From Candidatus Latescibacterota bacterium (GTDB taxonomy: Bacteria; Latescibacterota; UBA2968): DNA of 64,000 bases. The notes under the pieces are model-generated. The model ran no database searches, had not been told where the DNA came from, and saw nothing but the letters and a program-made list of their open reading frames with translations. The DNA lies in NCBI GenBank assembly GCA_965204745.1, contig OZ242010.1:544001-608000 (forward strand), written 5' to 3'. Below are positions 30,199 through 64,000 of the stretch, in pieces; position 1 is the first letter of the stretch, and the number at the start of each line of letters is the position of its first letter. Position numbers and translations under genes: made by a program.

Positions 30199-30296
30199 GA
30201 GGCGAGATGAAAGGCGTAAGACGGGAGAGGCAAGACGGGAGAGGCAAGACGGGAGAGGTAAGACGTGAGATACAAGGGGGAATAACATCTCTCCGT

Positions 30297-33535: not shown

Positions 33536-33589
33536 ACTGACAACTGACAACTGACAACTGACAACTGACAACTGACAACTGACAACTGA
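33536..33589. repeat. Heptamer array (ACTGACA)n, continued at 34578-34597 beyond the IS
   Basis: Perfect tandem copies on both sides of IS982. Confidence 0.95.
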
Positions 33590-34577
33590 CAATGCGAATT
33601 AAGAGTTGAATCCATCGCGTACTTGTCTTTTCTTGAGGGCTCAGTCATTTCACCCTTAAAGGAAGGAGCACGCGATGGATTGGCAAGATAAACTCATTCA
33701 CTTGTATGTCTATATTTGTCAGCAGTATGACCAAAAGCATCTGTGGTTTTATACGGAACGCATGAGTAATAACGACACGCCGACCTTCACAGATGAAGAA
33801 GTGCTGACGATCTATTTGTTTGGGATCATGCAACAACACACGCAGATCAAGGCGATTTATACCTATACCAAGGATCATTTGTTCGACTGGTTTCCCAATC
33901 TGCCCACTTATGCAGGCTATATCCAGCGGTTGAACCGCTTGTGTGTGGTCTTCGCCCCATTGATTGAACAAATCCAAAAGGATAGTCCCGCAACCGATGT
34001 CTCTGAACACACCTACTTGGTGGATTCCATGCCGATTGTTATGGCACAATCGGCACGTAGCGGTCAGGCATGTGTGGCTGAAGAACAACTGGCCAACAAA
34101 GGCCGCTGCGCTTCCAAAAAGATGTGGTATTACGGCACCAAACTGCACATGGTCGCACAAGACCGCGAGAATGGCCTCCCGAAAGCAGAGTACTTCGGCT
34201 TGACAGGTGCAGCAGAGCATGACCTGACTGCTTTGCGACATGTCTTACCCGTTTTGCGTGATGGACACCTCTACGGCGATAAAATCTACGCCGATCAGCC
34301 CTTAAAAGACACGCTTAGCAAACAGCAGAACCTGATCTTCGAGACGCCGGTGAAGCGAAAAAAGGGGCAAGAAAGCCTGACCGAGGCCGAAAAAGACTTT
34401 TCTCGGGCGGTTTCGAGCATGCGACAGCCTATAGAGGCCTTGTTCAGTTGGATTGAACGAAAGACGAACATCTCGATGGCGTCTCGGGTACGATCCTATG
34501 AGGGCTTACTCGTTCATGTCTTTGGGCGATTGACCGCGGCTTGCTTCTTACTCGCTTTCTACTCTTAATTCGCATTG
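33590..34577 (+). mobile_element. IS982-family insertion sequence
   Basis: Perfect 17-bp terminal IRs CAATGCGAATTAAGAGT/ACTCTTAATTCGCATTG; ACAACTGA on both flanks. Confidence 0.92.
33675..34568 (+). CDS. IS982-family DDE transposase
   Basis: FTDEEVLTI, VDSMPI, YGTKLH, GDKIY and RQPIEALFS motifs. Confidence 0.92.
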   Translation: MDWQDKLIHLYVYICQQYDQKHLWFYTERMSNNDTPTFTDEEVLTIYLFGIMQQHTQIKAIYTYTKDHLFDWFPNLPTYAGYIQRLNRLCVVFAPLIEQIQKDSPATDVSEHTYLVDSMPIVMAQSARSGQACVAEEQLANKGRCASKKMWYYGTKLHMVAQDRENGLPKAEYFGLTGAAEHDLTALRHVLPVLRDGHLYGDKIYADQPLKDTLSKQQNLIFETPVKRKKGQESLTEAEKDFSRAVSSMRQPIEALFSWIERKTNISMASRVRSYEGLLVHVFGRLTAACFLLAFYS

Positions 34578-35940: not shown

Positions 35941-36144
35941 AGAAACGCCCCGGTGATTGCGTGCCCCGCTCATCCACCCATCCACCAGTGCGGCCTTACC
36001 GTGCCACCCAACCGCCGTGTGCGTTATCCCGGCCCATATTCCCCGGCCTCTTGTATCTTTGGGCGAGCACGGGGGCATCGCCCCTACGTTTCTCTCCTCG
36101 CCTCTTGTATCTCGCTTAAAGGGGTTGGGGGTTAGGGTTGGGCG

Positions 36145-36183
36145 GACTGACTACTGACTACTGACTACTGACTACTGACCACT
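36145..36183. repeat. Heptamer array (ACTGACT)n
   Basis: Tandem copies after GGGCGG. Confidence 0.9.
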
Positions 36184-37276: not shown

Positions 37277-37402
37277 TGGTCAGGCCACCCGGCCCAACCC
37301 CCTTCGGTAAGACGTAAGACGTAAGAGGGAAGATACAAGATGACAGAGGGGTTGGGTGTTGTCTTATTTCTGCGTTCTCTCTGCTTTCCCCGTACATACG
37401 AC

Positions 37403-57810: not shown

Positions 57811-58617
57811 TCACAACGCGGTCCAACCGCCATCCACCAGCAAGGTATGCCCCGTGATGAGATCGGCAGCAGGGCTGGCTAAGAACACCACGGCGCCCAC
57901 CACATCTTCGGGCCGTCCAACGCGGCCGAGGGGGATGCGGGAAAGCACGTCTTCGCGCAAGTGGGCATCGTCAAATGTCGATTGGGTCAACGGGGTCAAA
58001 ATAAATGTCGGCCCCACGGCATTGACCGTAATCCGATGGGGCGCCCACTCCACTGCCAACACGCGCGTCAGGTTGACGACACCGGCTTTGCTCGCACAAT
58101 ACGCCGCGCGTTTGTAATAGCCCACCACGCCGTTTTGCGATGCGATGTTGACGATTTTTCCACCCCCCGTTTCGACCATGGATCGCGCCGCGCATTGAGA
58201 CATAAAGAACAGGCCCTTTAGGTTCACGTCCAGCACCGCGTCCCAATCGGCTTCTGTGACGTCGAGTGCGTCTTTGGGGATGTTGATCCCCGCATTGTTC
58301 ACCAGCACGTCGATTCGCCCGTACGCGTCTAACACGCGGCGAACCACCGAGTCGATAGCCGCGAGATTCGGCAGGTGCAAGGGCAAGGGCAATGCCCGGC
58401 GTCCCAGATTTTCAATCGCTTCGCACACCCCGTCCAACGCATCGATCTTTTGCGGCACTTCGCACACGGTCACATCTGCGCCCGCCTCGGCCACTGCCAG
58501 CGCGATGGCCCGCCCAATGCCCGATCCGCCGCCGGTTACCAATACCACGTTGTCATCCAATCGCATGCTGGGCAAGACCATTGCGGCACTCCTCTGATAT
58601 CTTTCGGCGAGGGACAT
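57811..58617 (-). CDS. SDR-family oxidoreductase
   Basis: TGGGSGIG, NNAG and YCASK motifs. Confidence 0.93.
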   Translation of the reverse strand: MSLAERYQRSAAMVLPSMRLDDNVVLVTGGGSGIGRAIALAVAEAGADVTVCEVPQKIDALDGVCEAIENLGRRALPLPLHLPNLAAIDSVVRRVLDAYGRIDVLVNNAGINIPKDALDVTEADWDAVLDVNLKGLFFMSQCAARSMVETGGGKIVNIASQNGVVGYYKRAAYCASKAGVVNLTRVLAVEWAPHRITVNAVGPTFILTPLTQSTFDDAHLREDVLSRIPLGRVGRPEDVVGAVVFLASPAADLITGHTLLVDGGWTAL

Positions 58618-58799
58618 AGTCACTGCTCGCCTTTGAACGGGTTGTCGCCAGTTGTACCCCGCCCGTGGCTAAAATCCCTCTTGCGTCTTGCCTCTTGCGT
58701 CTTACCTCTTACCTCTTGCGTCTCGCGTCTTACCTCTTGCCTCTTACCTCTCCCGCCTTTCACCTCTTGCCTCTTCCCTCTTGTATCTTGGGCTCAAGG

Positions 58800-58992
58800 G
58801 TTAATTTAGGTGTTGCGCCCTCGCATCGAGACACGCCATCTTGATGCCCTGCTCGGGGAAGGCCGGTGCCTCTTGAAGGCGATGACCTTGTAAGTAAGAT
58901 AGGCCCCCCGACCGCCGGGTCTATGCCGAAGAGTATCTAAGTCCCTTGAGGCTGCATATACAAGACCGGTAGACTTGGCGTCAATGGTCGGG
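58800..58992 (+). ncRNA. Putative IS110 bridge RNA (ends approximate)
   Basis: Two stem/internal-loop modules; the second holds AGAGTATCT and ATACAAG, matching the element's own end junction. Confidence 0.75.
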
Positions 58993-59048
58993 ATCGAACT
59001 CGAGCGCACACCAGACCCCTTACAACCCCCTCATCACAGGAGGCCCCC

Positions 59049-60056
59049 ATGTCGAACGCTCACCCCGCTTTCGCCGGCATTGATGTCAGTGCCCGCACGT
59101 TGTCTGTTGCCCTGTCCAGACCTGGACAAGCTGTCATGCAAGCGACCTTTGACAATGATCCCCAAGCCCATAAGCGGTTGCTGAAGTGGCTCACCAAGGG
59201 CGGGCACATGGTCTCTGTCTGCCTCGAAGCGACCGGGCTTTACAGCTTGGGGGTGGCCTTGGCCTTGCATCGGCATCGCCACACGCAGGTCATGGTCGTC
59301 AATCCCAAAGCGATGAGCAAGTACGGTCAAGCCTGCATGCAACGAGCCAAGACGGATGCGAAGGATGCGTTGTTGATCATGGATTATGCCGAGCGCATGC
59401 CGTTTGTGCCTTGGCAAGCGCCGAGTGAGCAACGGCTCCAACTGCAAGCCCTCACCAGACGCATTGACCAACTCAAGCAGGAGATCATCCGCGAACAGAG
59501 CCGCAACCACGCGCAAAGCTACCACATCCAGAGCACACGTCTCATCGCACGCGATATTCAGGTGAATATTCGACACCTCAAACGCCGGATTGCCTACTTG
59601 GAAGACCAAGCCCTCGATCTCGTTTTGCACGATGAGACCCAAAAGCGCGCCTACCAACACCTCTGCTCTACGCCTGGCATCGCACAAACGAGCGCCTTGC
59701 GGCTCTTGGCCGAGTTGACCCTTTTGCCAGAGGAGATGCAACCGCCCCAGTGGGTCGCACATGCAGACCTGGATCCCAAACCCAAACAATCCGGGACTGC
59801 CAATCCACAAAGACGCATCTCGAAAACCGGGAATAAGTACCTCCGTCATGCCCTCTATATGCCTGCCTGGGTGGCCAGCAGACACGAAGTCCATGTCAAA
59901 GCCTTCTATGACCAACTCATTGCCCGCGGCAAGAAACCTTTGCAGGCTATCGTTGCGGTGATGCGAAAGTTGCTCCATTCGATCTGGGGCATGGTGCGGC
60001 ATGACCAAGATTTTGAGGGCGAGAAATTCTATCGAATCACCCCGAAAACCCCTTGA
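59049..60056 (+). CDS. IS110 DEDD recombinase/transposase
   Basis: GIDVS, LEATG, VVNP, KTDAKDA, QSG, ISKTGNKYLR and AVMRKL motifs. Confidence 0.95.
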   Translation: MSNAHPAFAGIDVSARTLSVALSRPGQAVMQATFDNDPQAHKRLLKWLTKGGHMVSVCLEATGLYSLGVALALHRHRHTQVMVVNPKAMSKYGQACMQRAKTDAKDALLIMDYAERMPFVPWQAPSEQRLQLQALTRRIDQLKQEIIREQSRNHAQSYHIQSTRLIARDIQVNIRHLKRRIAYLEDQALDLVLHDETQKRAYQHLCSTPGIAQTSALRLLAELTLLPEEMQPPQWVAHADLDPKPKQSGTANPQRRISKTGNKYLRHALYMPAWVASRHEVHVKAFYDQLIARGKKPLQAIVAVMRKLLHSIWGMVRHDQDFEGEKFYRITPKTP

Positions 60057-60080
60057 CCTTTTAAGAGAGTATCTCACCTC

Positions 60081-60578
60081 TTACCTTTTTAACAAATTGA
60101 GACCTTCAATTTTTCGCACGGGCGAATCGCGCAAGGACGCCGCTAAAACTCGCATGGATTGCCGCAAGACCGGATGCTTGAGATGCGGGTTGAGGTCGCA
60201 AAGTGGGATCAGCACAAAGGCTCGCTCGTGCAAGTGCGGGTGTGGCACCTGCAAGCCCGGCTGGTGAATGACCACATCGCCGTAGAGTAAGATATCCAAA
60301 TCCACTGTGCGCGGGCCCCATCGCGTTCGGCGCGTGCGACCGAATTGTCGCTCGACCGATAGCAGGTAATTCAACAACTTTCGCACGGAAAGTCGAGAGC
60401 GAAGTTGCAACGCGGCATTGAGAAAACGCGGCTGATCAACCACCCCTACCGGCGCGGTTTCATAGACCGCTGAAGTAGCGACAACAGCGATTTCGGAATG
60501 GGCGTCCAAAACGCCGACCACATTCTGGAGCGTCTTTTCCCGATCCCCCAAATTCGCGCCGATGCCGATGTAGATCAT
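60081..60578 (-). CDS. folK: 6-hydroxymethyl-7,8-dihydropterin pyrophosphokinase
   Basis: IGIGANLGD, FLNA, RWGPRTVDLDIL and PHPHLHERAFVL motifs. Confidence 0.96.
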   Translation of the reverse strand: MIYIGIGANLGDREKTLQNVVGVLDAHSEIAVVATSAVYETAPVGVVDQPRFLNAALQLRSRLSVRKLLNYLLSVERQFGRTRRTRWGPRTVDLDILLYGDVVIHQPGLQVPHPHLHERAFVLIPLCDLNPHLKHPVLRQSMRVLAASLRDSPVRKIEGLNLLKR

Positions 60579-60620
60579 GGTCAGTAGTCAGTAGTCAGTG
60601 GTCAGTAGTCAGTGGTCAGT
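60578..60620. repeat. Heptamer array (GTCAGTR)n directly upstream of the folK ATG
   Basis: About six tandem copies. Confidence 0.9.
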
Positions 60621-60624
60621 CCCC

Positions 60625-60891
60625 CCGCCATTCCACCCCGCAAGTGAGAGGCGAGACGCAAGAGGCAAGAAGGCCACACCGCCATTCAAACCCGCCATTC
60701 CACCCCGCAAGTGAGAGGCGAGACGCAAGAGGCGAGAAGGCCACACCGCCATTCAACACCGCAAGTGAGAGGCGAGACGCAAGAGGTGAGAAGGCCACAC
60801 CGCCATTCAACCCCGCCATTCAACCCCATAAGTGAGAGGCGAGACGCAAGAGGCGAGAAGGCCACACCGCCATTCAACACCGCAAGTGAGA
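60625..60891. repeat. Composite tandem repeat with alternating 67/54-bp periods
   Basis: AAGTGAGAGGCGAGACGCAAGAGG starts at 60642, 60709, 60763 and 60830, partial at 60884. Confidence 0.9.
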
Positions 60892-60913: not shown

Positions 60914-63900
60914 CTATCCCGCATTTTCATGAAAAATTTTTGCCAGATAATCGTAGTTGTCGTCGCGGTCAAAAAAGAGAATGTGCTTGTCGGCGAAATC
61001 CTCGCGGCGCCATGAGCCATTCTCGTAGCGTTCGCACAAGTCCCGATAAGGCGTTGTCGAAATGATGAACGAATCGAGGCGCACCTCCGACACATTGGCG
61101 GGACGGGTTATTTTACGCGCCAATTTGGGCAACCGCTCGTGGAGTCGGGCCTTGTCGTCGTGGCGATAAGCGTTGGCGTTGAGCATGCCGTGCGGTTCGA
61201 TAAATGCGATGCGTTGCCGGTTGGAATCGACAATCCAAAGAATGAAATCGGGATAGAATCCGCTGGTTTCAAAGAACCCGATGCCCGTGCCTCGGCCCTG
61301 ATTCCGCAAAAGAAATACCTCTGTGCCGGCCAGCGCATCGTCCTTCTCTTTTGCCCAGAACGCCTTCAAGTCATCGACAAATCGTCTCTCGCCTTCGTTC
61401 AACCCCGGCGGCGACAGCGTTATTTTATCAGCGCTTTCCACGAGCAAGGGCTGGTACAGGTGTTGATCAAAATGAATGCGCGGCAAATTGCCCCTGTCGC
61501 TTTCGCAGAGCGCGTGGCAATCGGCGATGAGTTGTTCGAGATCGCCTATCAAAGTTTCTTCTGATCGGGGAACGCTGACGATGTACCGCCCGGTACCGCC
61601 GTCTTTGCCGATGTTGAAGTTGAAGTTGGGGTCGCTTTGGTCCAGCGTCTTATAGACCAGGCCCTTTGACTCCCATCGCGCTCGTTTGTGCCGATAGAGC
61701 GCGTCCGCGTATTTTCGCACGATGCTGACCACGGTCTCTTGCAAGCGCTCGCGGTCCGCATAACTGCGCGGTTTTACCACCTGCTCCTCGGCGATCAGGC
61801 GATACGCGGGCGGCGCGGCGACGAGAATCTTTCTCGGCGCATCCGGGCGGATGATCAGGTTGCACAATCCGCGCTGTTCCTTGTAGTCGAGCAGGTCGAG
61901 ATAGACGCGCCCCCAATCCACCAACGCGAGGCTTTTGTGTGGTATGTCCCTTTCCTCGCCGGAGGTGGCGCGGTCCATTTCGGCAAAATCGCTGTCCAAC
62001 TGGCTCACCTTTGCAGACACATCGACCAGCACGGGCCGCACGCCGGAATTGGGGGCCAAGAGCACCTCGGAGTCGGCTGCGAAATCCCGGTCGTCGTCCA
62101 TGCGGGGGATGACCAAGCCCTTGTCGAGAAAGTCCCGATTGGGCCGAATGACCAACGGCAGTTCCAACACCCCATCCGTCGCCACGCCTTCGCGCTCCAA
62201 GTAATCCCGAAATTGGGCCATATAATTGGCGCGCACGGCAAAGATATTGAGCGTTTCCAGCGCCTTGATGTAATCGGGATGCCGCCCGTCGAGTGCGGCG
62301 CTGCGTTTCAGCGTCATCCCCCGCCCGCGCAACCGCACGCCGCGGCCAAACAGCTGGATGATCTGCGACCCCTCGCTCCTGCCAATGTTGAGCAACCCCA
62401 TGTTGGATACGCGCCAGGAATCCCAACCTTCGATAAATTTTCGGGCGCCGATCAGCACCTCAATGGTCGTTCCCGGTTCGTTGATCCCGTCAAACAGCGA
62501 GCCGGAGAAAGCGTCTTCCTCCATCGCGATGCCGGCGTTGTCAGCCGCGACCAGATTTTTGAATTTCGTCGTATCCCCAATGTAAATCAAGCCGAAGTAC
62601 TCCTCGGCCCCGCCGACTTTAAGCCCGATTTCGCCATCGCGGCCGCGGATGTTGCACAGGTGTAGCCCACTGCCGGCGGCGGCGTGCAACACCCTCGCCA
62701 GTATATCCCGATACAGCGTTGCCGAATCCCGCCCGCGCAGGTACTCGAATTTGTCGGCGAAAACGTCTTTTCCATCCGCGTCGCGCAAGCCCGAATGCCC
62801 CGTCAGCAACTGGTCAATCGCACCCGTAGCCCAAGTCGCATTCGCTATCAGCCGATGCAAGAACCGCACCACCGTCAAAATATCGCTCCGGGGTTGGCGT
62901 CTTTCCGTATAGACCGCGTTGACGCTACCGCCCACGAAAACCCACAGGGGTCGGGCCAGATTGTAGGGCCGGAACGCCTCGGCCCGTTCGGCAAAGACGA
63001 GTTGCTGTTCGTAAAAGGAGAGCAAGTTGGCGAGCAGCAACCTATCCGTTTGGTCCGCAGTCGTCTCCTGTTGCAAGTTGAGAATGTGGAAGTCCTTGCC
63101 ATAGCCATCGCCGTAGAAGTAGCGATAGGAATAGTCAAACGCGATGGCCTTGCCGTATTCAGCCATCAGATCCGCGTTCCGCGCCGCGGTCAGGGCTTGC
63201 CCAAAGGTCGCGCTGTACTCGAAGGTGAACCCGGTCTCGCCCAGTGCATCGCGCAGGTTGCGCCACGCTTCGCCGCCAGAGCCTTTGTGCCCCTCGTCGA
63301 CAAAAATCAGGTTGTTGCCCGCAAATGCCTCGACGGGTACGCGCACCCCACCGCCTCGCTTTTCCCCGACCAACTTGGTAATCTCGGTCACCTCGATGGC
63401 ATTTTGCCCCGCCCCCAGCAGGCTGCTTTTGTTCAGTTCAAACCGCGACGCGGGGATGTTGGACGCTTGCAGTTCTGCCAGATGTTGCTCGGTCAATCCT
63501 TCGTTGGGCGTGATCAACAGGATGTTGTCCAATGCCTCGGCATTGTAATGGAGGAACTGCCGGTAGTTCAGGTGCATGATGAGCGTCTTGCCACTGCCGG
63601 TCGCCATCCAAAACGCCAGTTTTCGCAAATCCGCCTCGGCAAATTCCGTTTCCCGCGCCTCTCGGGCGGAACGCTTGACATTGCGCCGTTTGACCAAATC
63701 GTTCAGCGAGCGCAACAACGCGCCTTGGCGGTTGAAGCACCAGTCGAGAAAAATTTCGGTGTATAGGGCCGCCAGATATTGGAAGTAGCGCAAGGTGATG
63801 GGCCGGAGCCGCCCCTTGTTCATCGCCGTCAGATGGGTGCGGATATGGGCGTCGTACTGCGCCAAATCGGCCAGCGAAACATCCTTCAGGTGGCTCGGTC

Positions 63901-64000
63901 GAGACGCCAACCGGGCGTAGATATGGCTACGGCCTTCGGCGTCAAAGCCTTCATCGACCTGCTCCATGTCCGCTAAGAGATCGCGGTTTCCCAGATAGCC
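60914..64000 (-). CDS. Type III restriction (Res)-like SF2 helicase-nuclease (5' end outside window)
   Basis: MATGSGKT, VDEGH, YSATF, EGWD and QLFGRGVR motifs; C-terminal FYPDFILW...FIEPHG nuclease; frame open to the window edge. Confidence 0.85.
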   Translation of the reverse strand, partial: GYLGNRDLLADMEQVDEGFDAEGRSHIYARLASRPSHLKDVSLADLAQYDAHIRTHLTAMNKGRLRPITLRYFQYLAALYTEIFLDWCFNRQGALLRSLNDLVKRRNVKRSAREARETEFAEADLRKLAFWMATGSGKTLIMHLNYRQFLHYNAEALDNILLITPNEGLTEQHLAELQASNIPASRFELNKSSLLGAGQNAIEVTEITKLVGEKRGGGVRVPVEAFAGNNLIFVDEGHKGSGGEAWRNLRDALGETGFTFEYSATFGQALTAARNADLMAEYGKAIAFDYSYRYFYGDGYGKDFHILNLQQETTADQTDRLLLANLLSFYEQQLVFAERAEAFRPYNLARPLWVFVGGSVNAVYTERRQPRSDILTVVRFLHRLIANATWATGAIDQLLTGHSGLRDADGKDVFADKFEYLRGRDSATLYRDILARVLHAAAGSGLHLCNIRGRDGEIGLKVGGAEEYFGLIYIGDTTKFKNLVAADNAGIAMEEDAFSGSLFDGINEPGTTIEVLIGARKFIEGWDSWRVSNMGLLNIGRSEGSQIIQLFGRGVRLRGRGMTLKRSAALDGRHPDYIKALETLNIFAVRANYMAQFRDYLEREGVATDGVLELPLVIRPNRDFLDKGLVIPRMDDDRDFAADSEVLLAPNSGVRPVLVDVSAKVSQLDSDFAEMDRATSGEERDIPHKSLALVDWGRVYLDLLDYKEQRGLCNLIIRPDAPRKILVAAPPAYRLIAEEQVVKPRSYADRERLQETVVSIVRKYADALYRHKRARWESKGLVYKTLDQSDPNFNFNIGKDGGTGRYIVSVPRSEETLIGDLEQLIADCHALCESDRGNLPRIHFDQHLYQPLLVESADKITLSPPGLNEGERRFVDDLKAFWAKEKDDALAGTEVFLLRNQGRGTGIGFFETSGFYPDFILWIVDSNRQRIAFIEPHGMLNANAYRHDDKARLHERLPKLARKITRPANVSEVRLDSFIISTTPYRDLCERYENGSWRREDFADKHILFFDRDDNYDYLAKIFHENAG

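Follow-up and report, generated by a model that had tools for sequence, protein, structure and literature searches.

A bridge-RNA-guided IS110-family element in the heptamer microsatellites of a Latescibacterota genome, and a copy whose present guide most likely did not place it

We analysed a stretch of 64,000 nucleotides (the 64-kb window) from contig OZ242010.1 of a Candidatus Latescibacterota bacterium, which carries a full-length insertion sequence (IS) of the IS110 family. In the explanation that we favour, with a probability of roughly 85%, this element has a bridge RNA that targets heptamer repeats, and the window copy was most likely not placed by the guide that it carries today. In mechanism the element belongs to the known family and is not a new kind of system. 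Coordinates are those of the window, and motifs and ends were read directly from the sequence between 58300 and 60700. The motifs listed in a preliminary description of this DNA were all present at the positions it gave, and its central proposal, an IS110 element with an IS621-type bridge RNA, was borne out by protein matches, covariation and guide complementarity. The element and its borders are arranged as follows.

58677-58779 (+): heptamer (CCTCTTR-type) microsatellite array in the left flank; Tandem Repeats Finder reported period 7 and 15 copies at 58677-58783
58775-58779 (+): left target TCCCT, the last 5 nt of the left-flank array, read from the sequence
58780-60074 (+): whole IS110-family element including CT at both junctions; ends identical in 52 full-length copies
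58780-58781 and 60073-60074 (+): CT cores of the element, one CT of the two being the target's
58842-58994 (+): bridge RNA core, target-binding loop and then donor-binding loop (covariance model R1, 181.9 bits)
59049-60056 (+): IS110-family RNA-guided recombinase, 335 aa (Pfam, NCBIfam and PDB matches, alignment A6)
60075-60089 (+): right flank CACCT CTTACC..., right target and leftover heptamer units, read from the sequence

The left junction reads TCCCT (58775-58779), CT (58780-58781) and TGTAT (58782-58786), and the right junction AGAGTAT (60066-60072), CT (60073-60074) and CACCT (60075-60079), which gives an element of 1,293 bp plus the shared CT core. It lies at the end of the 15-unit heptamer array, which is intergenic in the window. 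When four sequencing runs were compared at 58300-60500, contigs from run X2 spanned both insertion junctions, so that the same insertion is present in this run.

The single long open reading frame (ORF) inside the element, 59049-60056 (+), encodes the recombinase. Its product matched PF01548 DEDD_Tnp_IS110 (4e-24) and PF02371 Transposase_20 (3e-17) in Pfam, and scored 202.7 bits against the NCBIfam model NF033542 'IS110 family RNA-guided transposase', whose cutoff is 140. Among solved structures, residues 8-326 matched ISCro4 9t56 (2e-36) and IS621 8wt6 (2e-33). The residues D12, E60, D103, D106 and S248 are invariant in alignment A6 and, when matched by motifs, would correspond to the D11/E60/D105/S241 set of IS621 (PMC11208158). 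The protein has the N-terminal DEDD (RuvC-like) domain and the C-terminal Tnp domain with catalytic serine that mark the IS110 family.

Between the left end and this gene lies a structured RNA with two internal loops, each closed by a stem, whose parts are listed here.

58853-58911 (+): target-binding loop (consensus structure; guide positions vary with the flanks between subfamilies)
58853-58858 with 58906-58911 (+): target-loop basal stem
58861-58864 with 58902-58905 (+): target-loop GGCC stem
58867-58873 (+): left target guide UGCCU-CU (TGCCTCT in DNA)
58876-58879 with 58886-58889 (+): target-loop inner hairpin
58892-58898 (+): right target guide AAGUA-AG, its GTAAG part at 58894-58898
58899-58900 (+): target-loop handshake-position dinucleotide AU
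58913-58980 (+): donor-binding loop (end matches, covariation)
58913-58928 with 58967-58980 (+): donor-loop basal stem, compensatory changes in 10 of 14 pairs
58930-58938 (+): left donor guide AGAGUAU-CU, identical to the right end at 60066-60074
58940-58943 with 58950-58953 (+): donor-loop inner hairpin
58958-58964 (+): right donor guide AUACA-AG (ATACAAG in DNA), reverse complement of 58780-58786
60066-60072 (+): left donor arm AGAGTAT, the 7 nt of the right end that directly precede its CT core

Model R1 matched L001:1563-1715, which is 58842-58994 of the window, and its homologues were found in 13 of 151 genomes sampled from the phylum, the window's genome included. RNAalifold, run on 19 aligned 5' regions, recovered the two stem-closed internal loops, and an explicit structure applied to 15 sequences was 97.3% paired with little variation among them. 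Among 21 diverse homologues taken from the R1 hits, 15 of 32 pairs showed compensatory changes and 91.9% of cells were paired, compared with 33-51% when the partners were slid; the observed values were reached in 0 of 500 shuffles. Across the alignment columns the guide positions were the most variable, and the donor guide region was conserved.

The donor-binding loop was found to repeat the ends of the element, as had been proposed: the 9-nt left guide equals the right end, and the 7-nt right guide is the reverse complement of the left end. Stem-forming motifs, CGCCGGGTCTA at 58913-58923 and TAGACTTGGCG at 58970-58980, close this loop. The left-guide sequence AGAGTATCT (58930-58938) has exactly two occurrences in the window, one inside the loop and the other at the right end, compared with 0.04 expected, and at least two occurrences were seen in 0 of 100 shuffles. 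CTTGTAT matched 12 times compared with 3.1 expected, a less telling match because CTTGTAT is also present at the starts of heptamer arrays. With the core included, the donor guides (9 nt left, 7 nt right) fit the joined ends in all subfamily representatives, apart from one mismatch in the variant u5 described below. Transcription from the left end would yield a bridge RNA with two internal loops, of which the donor loop would pair with the joined ends AGAGTAT-CT-TGTAT and the target loop with a 12-bp site made of 5 nt, CT and 5 nt.

We then examined the rest of the genome (5.48 Mb, one contig), where BLAST returned 75 pieces of the element and 52 full-length copies, defined by coverage of the 1,295-nt query above 1,200 nt. 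All 52 copies start with CT-TGTAT, one of them with a 1-nt insertion, and end with AGAGTAT-CT, with CT at both junctions in every case as the dinucleotide core common to donor and target; the target is not duplicated beyond it. All of them are located at heptamer-type sites, at junctions between repeat units, and an uninterrupted 335-aa match was obtained from 51, the exception being c3890249. The flanks of the copies had been named beforehand as the test of the microsatellite claim, and the claim came through it, with the same ends and the same type of site throughout. The target loop does spell a heptamer-repeat junction, and the family resides in heptamer arrays. As the 12-bp sites in this genome are junctions between variant units of a (CTCTYRC)n heptamer microsatellite, the arrays would act as a multi-copy target.

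When sorted by identity over the first 275 nt, the copies gave ten variants, namely u0 (34 copies), u1 (8), u2 (3) and seven singletons, one of which is the window copy (u4), and their target loops have diversified into four guide classes. Class A (u0, u1, u6, u8 and u9; 45 copies) carries the left guide CCCCTCT and the right guide AGGTAAG (CCCCU-CU / AGGUA-AG in RNA). Its left flank is CCCCT in 41 copies and TACCT in 4, and its right flank is TACC in 24, TGCC in 18 (a U-G wobble), TACT in 1 and CCCG in 2; guide and site agree on both sides, perfectly or by wobble, in 38 of the 45, one copy has a single mismatch, and six agree on one side only. Class B (three u2 copies and u7; guides CGCCTCT and AAGTAAG) has CGCCT on the left in 3 of 4 copies and CACCT, a G-T wobble, in the other, with TACTT on the right in 3 of 4. 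Variant u3 (guides TGCCTCT and AAGTAAG) is at TACCT-CT-TACTT, and u5, which is copy c1297034 (guides TCCCTCT and AGGTGAG), is at TCCCT-CT-CACCT with all 12 positions matched. The left guide therefore fits the left flank in 41/45 copies of class A, 3/4 of class B and 1/1 for u5, and such fits were also seen in the related genomes G016 and G018. The possibility that CCCCT belongs to the element itself was rejected, since TACCT replaces it in 4/45 class-A copies, CGCCT or TCCCT stands there in other classes, and 84 uninterrupted CCCCTCTTRCC sites exist.

Pattern counts over the genome resolved these 84 empty sites into 16 with TACC and 68 with TGCC, and gave 448 empty TRCCTCTTRCC sites and 29 CGCCTCTTACT sites. 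Class-A copies occupy 20 of 36 perfect sites (56%), 18 of 86 wobble sites (21%) and 4 of 452 TRCCT sites (0.9%), the last being two-mismatch sites; for TACC versus TGCC, hand arithmetic gave a chi-square of about 14 with 1 degree of freedom. Guide-to-flank covariation and occupancy counts together showed that each guide class occupies sites that fit the guide it carries. Spread by segmental duplication or by recombination between arrays, in place of transposition, could be argued from about 40 bp of similar right flank common to five copies of the 90% subfamily. In the copies read, however, flanks differ beyond 15-40 bp, and the 34 copies that are identical over their first 275 nt stand in different contexts; on these differing flanks we rejected duplication as the mode of spread, and its probability is minimal.

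The protein was also searched for in 41 genomes, consisting of the window's genome and 40 relatives, and the family was found in three genomes besides the window's. In G018, 9 of 18 copies were read, and the guide is CGCCTCT / GGGAG (CGCCU-CU / GGG-AG in RNA) in the seven whose loop was read. The left flanks are CGCCT in 2, CACCT in 4 and TGCCT in 3 of the nine, the right flanks start with CCC in 8/9, and sites of the form xRCCT-CT-CCC were found in 8/9, with heptamer arrays holding 7/9. In G016, 6 of 8 copies were read; the guide is TCCYCCT / AGAAAAG (UCCYC-CU / AGAAA-AG in RNA), with GGAAAG in one copy, the right flank is TTTCT in 5/6, and the left flank is at most one mismatch from the guide in 4/6. 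The G016 sites are in a REP-like repeat, not in heptamer arrays. These two genomes follow the same guide-to-site logic with other guides. The third, G036, has a protein of 53% identity and a different guide again.

Such covariation bears on the objection that protein-DNA recognition, or the structure of the repeat DNA, sets the site preference, and that the RNA complementarity is a coincidence. All target sites are pyrimidine-rich repeats, and composition alone could give some agreement. Against this, where the guides of different lineages differ by 1-3 nt, the flanks differ accordingly in three genomes, while the recombinases remain 77-96% identical, and occupancy drops 60-fold from CCCCT to TRCCT sites, which differ only at guide-paired positions. 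We therefore regard coincidence as very improbable.

The window copy was next compared with its own site. Its guides UGCCU-CU / AAGUA-AG predict the target TGCCT-CT-TACTT, and the real site is TCCCT-CT-CACCT, so that 7 of 10 non-core positions match. One mismatch lies on the left and two on the right; the earlier count of one per side has to be corrected because the right guide is 7 nt long (AAGUAAG, 58892-58898). The same site is the exact cognate, with 0 mismatches, of the guide UCCCU-CU / AGGUG-AG of c1297034 (u5). The sequence around the target loop of the window copy contains a further feature.

58796-58917 (+): mosaic tract with the entire target-binding loop (differences counted by eye, alignment A1)

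Over this tract the window copy has 1 difference to u3, of the 90% subfamily, 9 to u1 and 8 to u5, and from 58918 to the start codon it has about 18 to u3, 1 to u1 and 3 to u5; the breakpoint falls in the conserved linker between both loops. Because the pattern of differences reverses at 58918, we conclude that the target-loop module was acquired by recombination, most likely with a member of the 90% subfamily; the tract is seen directly, and we infer the timing of the swap. With a site perfect for the guide of another lineage and a recombinant target-loop segment, the guide now in the window copy is probably not the one that placed it. The copy would have been placed under a u5-like guide, and its target-loop module would later have been swapped in from a 90% subfamily member, or, alternatively, a target loop from another copy would have acted in trans.

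Insertion under the present guide (UGCCU-CU / AAGUA-AG) at an imperfect site, through tolerance of mismatches, has some precedent: the six one-sided class-A copies sit at sites that fit one guide half only, and a 2026 preprint reports 'half-match' off-target insertion by IS621. The three mismatches of the window copy, however, are spread over both halves, neither of which is perfect. Perfect sites for its own guide were on offer (TGCCTCTTACT, 24 empty by genome pattern count), together with hundreds of near-perfect ones, and the site it holds matches another lineage's target at 12/12 positions and is of a scarce type (TCCCTCTCACC, 12 empty and 2 occupied). IS621 itself showed low tolerance for double mismatches (PMC11208160). 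We consider this explanation unlikely.

Guidance in trans would mean that the window copy already had its present guide and that a u5-type copy supplied the transcribed target loop that directed insertion of its circle. The donor ends, common to all lineages, make this possible, and donor guides and ends are indeed the same in the subfamily representatives, bar 1 nt in the left donor guide of u5. IS621 functions with the bridge RNA supplied in trans (PMC11208160), a single synaptic complex probably takes its two loops from two RNA molecules (PMC11208158), and an RNA with the target loop only is the main species in another IS110 element, according to a preprint. Four class-A copies at TACCT-CT-TACCT also fit the class-C guide (1 wobble, 1 mismatch) better than their own (2 mismatches). 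On the other side, the sequence holds no direct sign of trans action, u5 itself carries a left donor guide with a mismatch, and the mosaic tract explains the window copy more simply if the swap followed insertion. Trans guidance is thus a possibility with the odds clearly against it. In our ranking, a guide swap after insertion guided by a u5-like RNA, or trans guidance, comes ahead of mismatch-tolerant insertion. The preliminary description had supposed that the IS uses microsatellites and tolerates mismatches; the use of microsatellites holds for all 52 copies, and the tolerance is probably not the reason for the position of the window copy, as guide and site agree closely across the family and the window site fits the u5 guide.

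A private substitution raises the question of whether the window copy is still active. It carries G240D ("ADL", codon GAC at 59766-59768), 8 residues before the catalytic serine, and AGL is kept in the other five subfamily representatives, in G016, G018 and G036, and in ISCro4. No second copy with the window copy's sequence, and so no identical daughter, was found in the genome. The doubt over activity voiced earlier on account of ADL was therefore justified, and the copy may be no longer autonomous, given this private change near the catalytic serine and the lack of identical daughter copies.

Several points weigh against the favoured interpretation or limit it. The 21-homologue alignment (A5) was fitted to the R1 model, so its pair counts lean towards the modelled structure. 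The single-sequence minimum-free-energy fold of the whole untranslated region was no more stable than shuffles (z = -0.74), and covariation was therefore used for structure. Rfam 15, searched at permissive thresholds over 58500-60400, gave no match, an uninformative result as the library apparently holds no bridge-RNA family. Across the four runs at 58300-60500 no contig joint across the element or its circle junction was found; contigs cannot show circles, and this has no bearing on expression or mobility. Guides and flanks were tallied by hand. Insertion is at times relaxed, because 6/45 class-A copies match on one side only, and from one genome a swap before insertion looks the same as a swap after it.

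The IS lineages might further be viewed as one pool, with shared donor ends and recombinase, exchangeable target-loop modules and trans action, in which the position of a copy need not reflect the guide it carries. We put this forward tentatively, as a conjecture that is somewhat more probable wrong than right. If it were true, a heterogeneous microsatellite would be a graded target landscape in which nearly every single-base guide change finds tens of perfect sites, graded sites would permit stepwise natural reprogramming of bridge RNAs, and the window copy would show this process at one moment, its target-loop module newly exchanged and its position due to a different guide.

The element ends also carry promoter-like hexamers.

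58784-58789 (+): TATCTT, -10-like hexamer in the left end; TAT.TT invariant in 19 aligned relatives, putative promoter function
60053-60058 (+): TTGACC, -35-like hexamer in the right end, overlapping the stop codon; TTGA.C invariant in 19 aligned right ends

Across a circle junction with a single CT, TTGACC and TATCTT are 18 nt apart when counted by eye, in agreement with the spacing first proposed from sequence only. The hexamers lie at conserved distances from the ends, and reading of u1, G016, G018 and G036 gave a spacer of 17 nt. TTGACC/TATCTT may be a promoter assembled at the circle junction. In the left flanks of many class-A copies, where the array has two CTCTTGC units before CCCCT (for example, c838757 and c1407892), TTGCCT is located 18 nt upstream of TATCTT, and the heptamer microsatellite might supply a weak -35 element for integrated copies.

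Other observations concern the donor loop and the junctions. The dinucleotide after the right donor guide (58965-58966, the donor-loop handshake position) is AC, and targets in this genome end in T before the core; in G016 the dinucleotide is GU and the targets end in C before the core. The donor-loop handshake dinucleotide may covary with target position 7. The A of AC could also pair with the donor's own T7, and such pairing is reported to be inhibitory in IS621 (PMC11208158). In G036 (L039, L043 and L047) the left target guide has AU in place of the core CU, and the junctions show AT at the left in 2/3 copies and CT at the right in 3/3, a pattern that fits an AT-core target and a CT-core donor whose strands were exchanged on the downstream side of the core.

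Some copies stand in particular surroundings. At G000:C1:1121591-1124182 (L007, L013) a u1 and a u0 copy are arranged head to tail, separated by TACCT and the core only; the second copy was therefore inserted at TACCT-CT-TACC beside the right end of the first. The five copies of the 90% subfamily (G000:C1:216675, 288678, 1307080, 2197903 and 3989030) resemble one another in their immediate surroundings, with GGGGCGGTGGG...TCTCGCCT to the left and TACTTCTTGCCTCTTACTTGGGGATAGGGCTTGCGG to the right; the target of this subfamily therefore appears to be a short array that lies inside a REP-like element. A genome-wide count of the left-end tip motif CTCTTGTATCTT gave 108 occurrences, and 0 for the reversed control; full-length copies can account for only about 46 of them. 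Approximately 50 others stand alone where heptamer arrays begin, and a GC-rich hairpin (in the window, GGGCGAGCACGGGGGCATCGCCC) often follows them; in the window, tip motifs are at 36048-36059, 36102-36112, 30270-30276 (-) and 37333-37339 (-). These solo motifs may represent remnants of left ends, MITE-like derivatives or a repeat of the host that resembles the IS end, and CTTGTAT can also be read as a variant heptamer unit.

The neighbours of the element are an SDR-family gene (57811-58623, minus strand) and an HPPK gene (60081-60578, minus strand). A second heptamer array family (ACTGACA, ACTGACT, GTCAGTA) is common in the window (33536-33592, 36146-36183, 60580-60620) and is unused by the IS. 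Further right, a compound tandem repeat at 60624-60891 has a period of 54, 67 or 121 bp and is built of CCGCCATTCAA motifs and inverted heptamer units, with short ORFs overlapping it. The 1,017-aa ORF at 60914-63967 (-) has ResIII and SWI2/SNF2 helicase domains and is possibly part of a restriction or defence system.

Bridge recombinases are under development as programmable genome-writing tools, and natural guide evolution and in vivo strictness are known mostly from IS621 in E. coli. The genome described here offers a natural experiment in one chromosome, with about 52 copies, four guide classes and hundreds of graded sites whose occupancy can be measured, as well as copies matched on one side only and a target-loop module whose swap can be seen. 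In the literature searched, no description of heptamer microsatellites as a target class of IS110 elements was found, and the supplementary target tables of the 2024 papers may list such sites. This target class, together with guide variants within one genome and the loop swap, makes the element a useful natural system.

The founding case is the IS621 bridge-RNA system of E. coli (Durrant et al. 2024, PMC11208160; Hiraizumi et al. 2024, PMC11208158). A DNA similarity search with the element in E. coli genomes did not reach IS621, so the comparison rests on the protein match and the published descriptions. Both systems have a RuvC-like DEDD domain and a Tnp domain with catalytic serine, a non-coding RNA encoded before the gene, in which the target loop precedes the donor loop, a CT core and a 9-nt left donor guide. 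In both, left guides have top-strand sense and right guides are the reverse complement, core included (PMC11208160), and the handshake position is AU, complementary to donor positions 6-7. In IS621 a -35 element in the right end is completed across the circle junction, and the right-end TTGACC found here may act in the same way. The proteins are only distant relatives (E = 2e-33), and the target guides here are 5 + 2 nt on either side, whereas those of IS621 have nine bases on the left and four, extendable, on the right (PMC11208160). Mismatch tolerance of IS621 was low in experiments (PMC11208160).

The targets also differ: here they are heptamer microsatellite junctions, with several guide classes coexisting in one genome. 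REP elements are the targets of IS621. The ISCro4 transposase (PDB 9t56), compared by protein only, is the best solved-structure match (residues 8-326) and shares the AGL...SG motif, with G where the window protein has D. Elements of the IS1111 group with their seekRNA are likewise RNA-guided DEDD recombinase systems of the same superfamily. Their seekRNA lies 3' of the gene, whereas here, as in the IS110 group, the RNA lies on its 5' side. Similar in choice of target are ISPpu10 and other IS110 elements that also use a multi-copy intergenic repeat (10.64898/2026.03.19.712850); theirs is a single conserved intergenic target, whereas the element described here uses a heterogeneous tandem repeat, with variants of the unit and matching variants of the guide.

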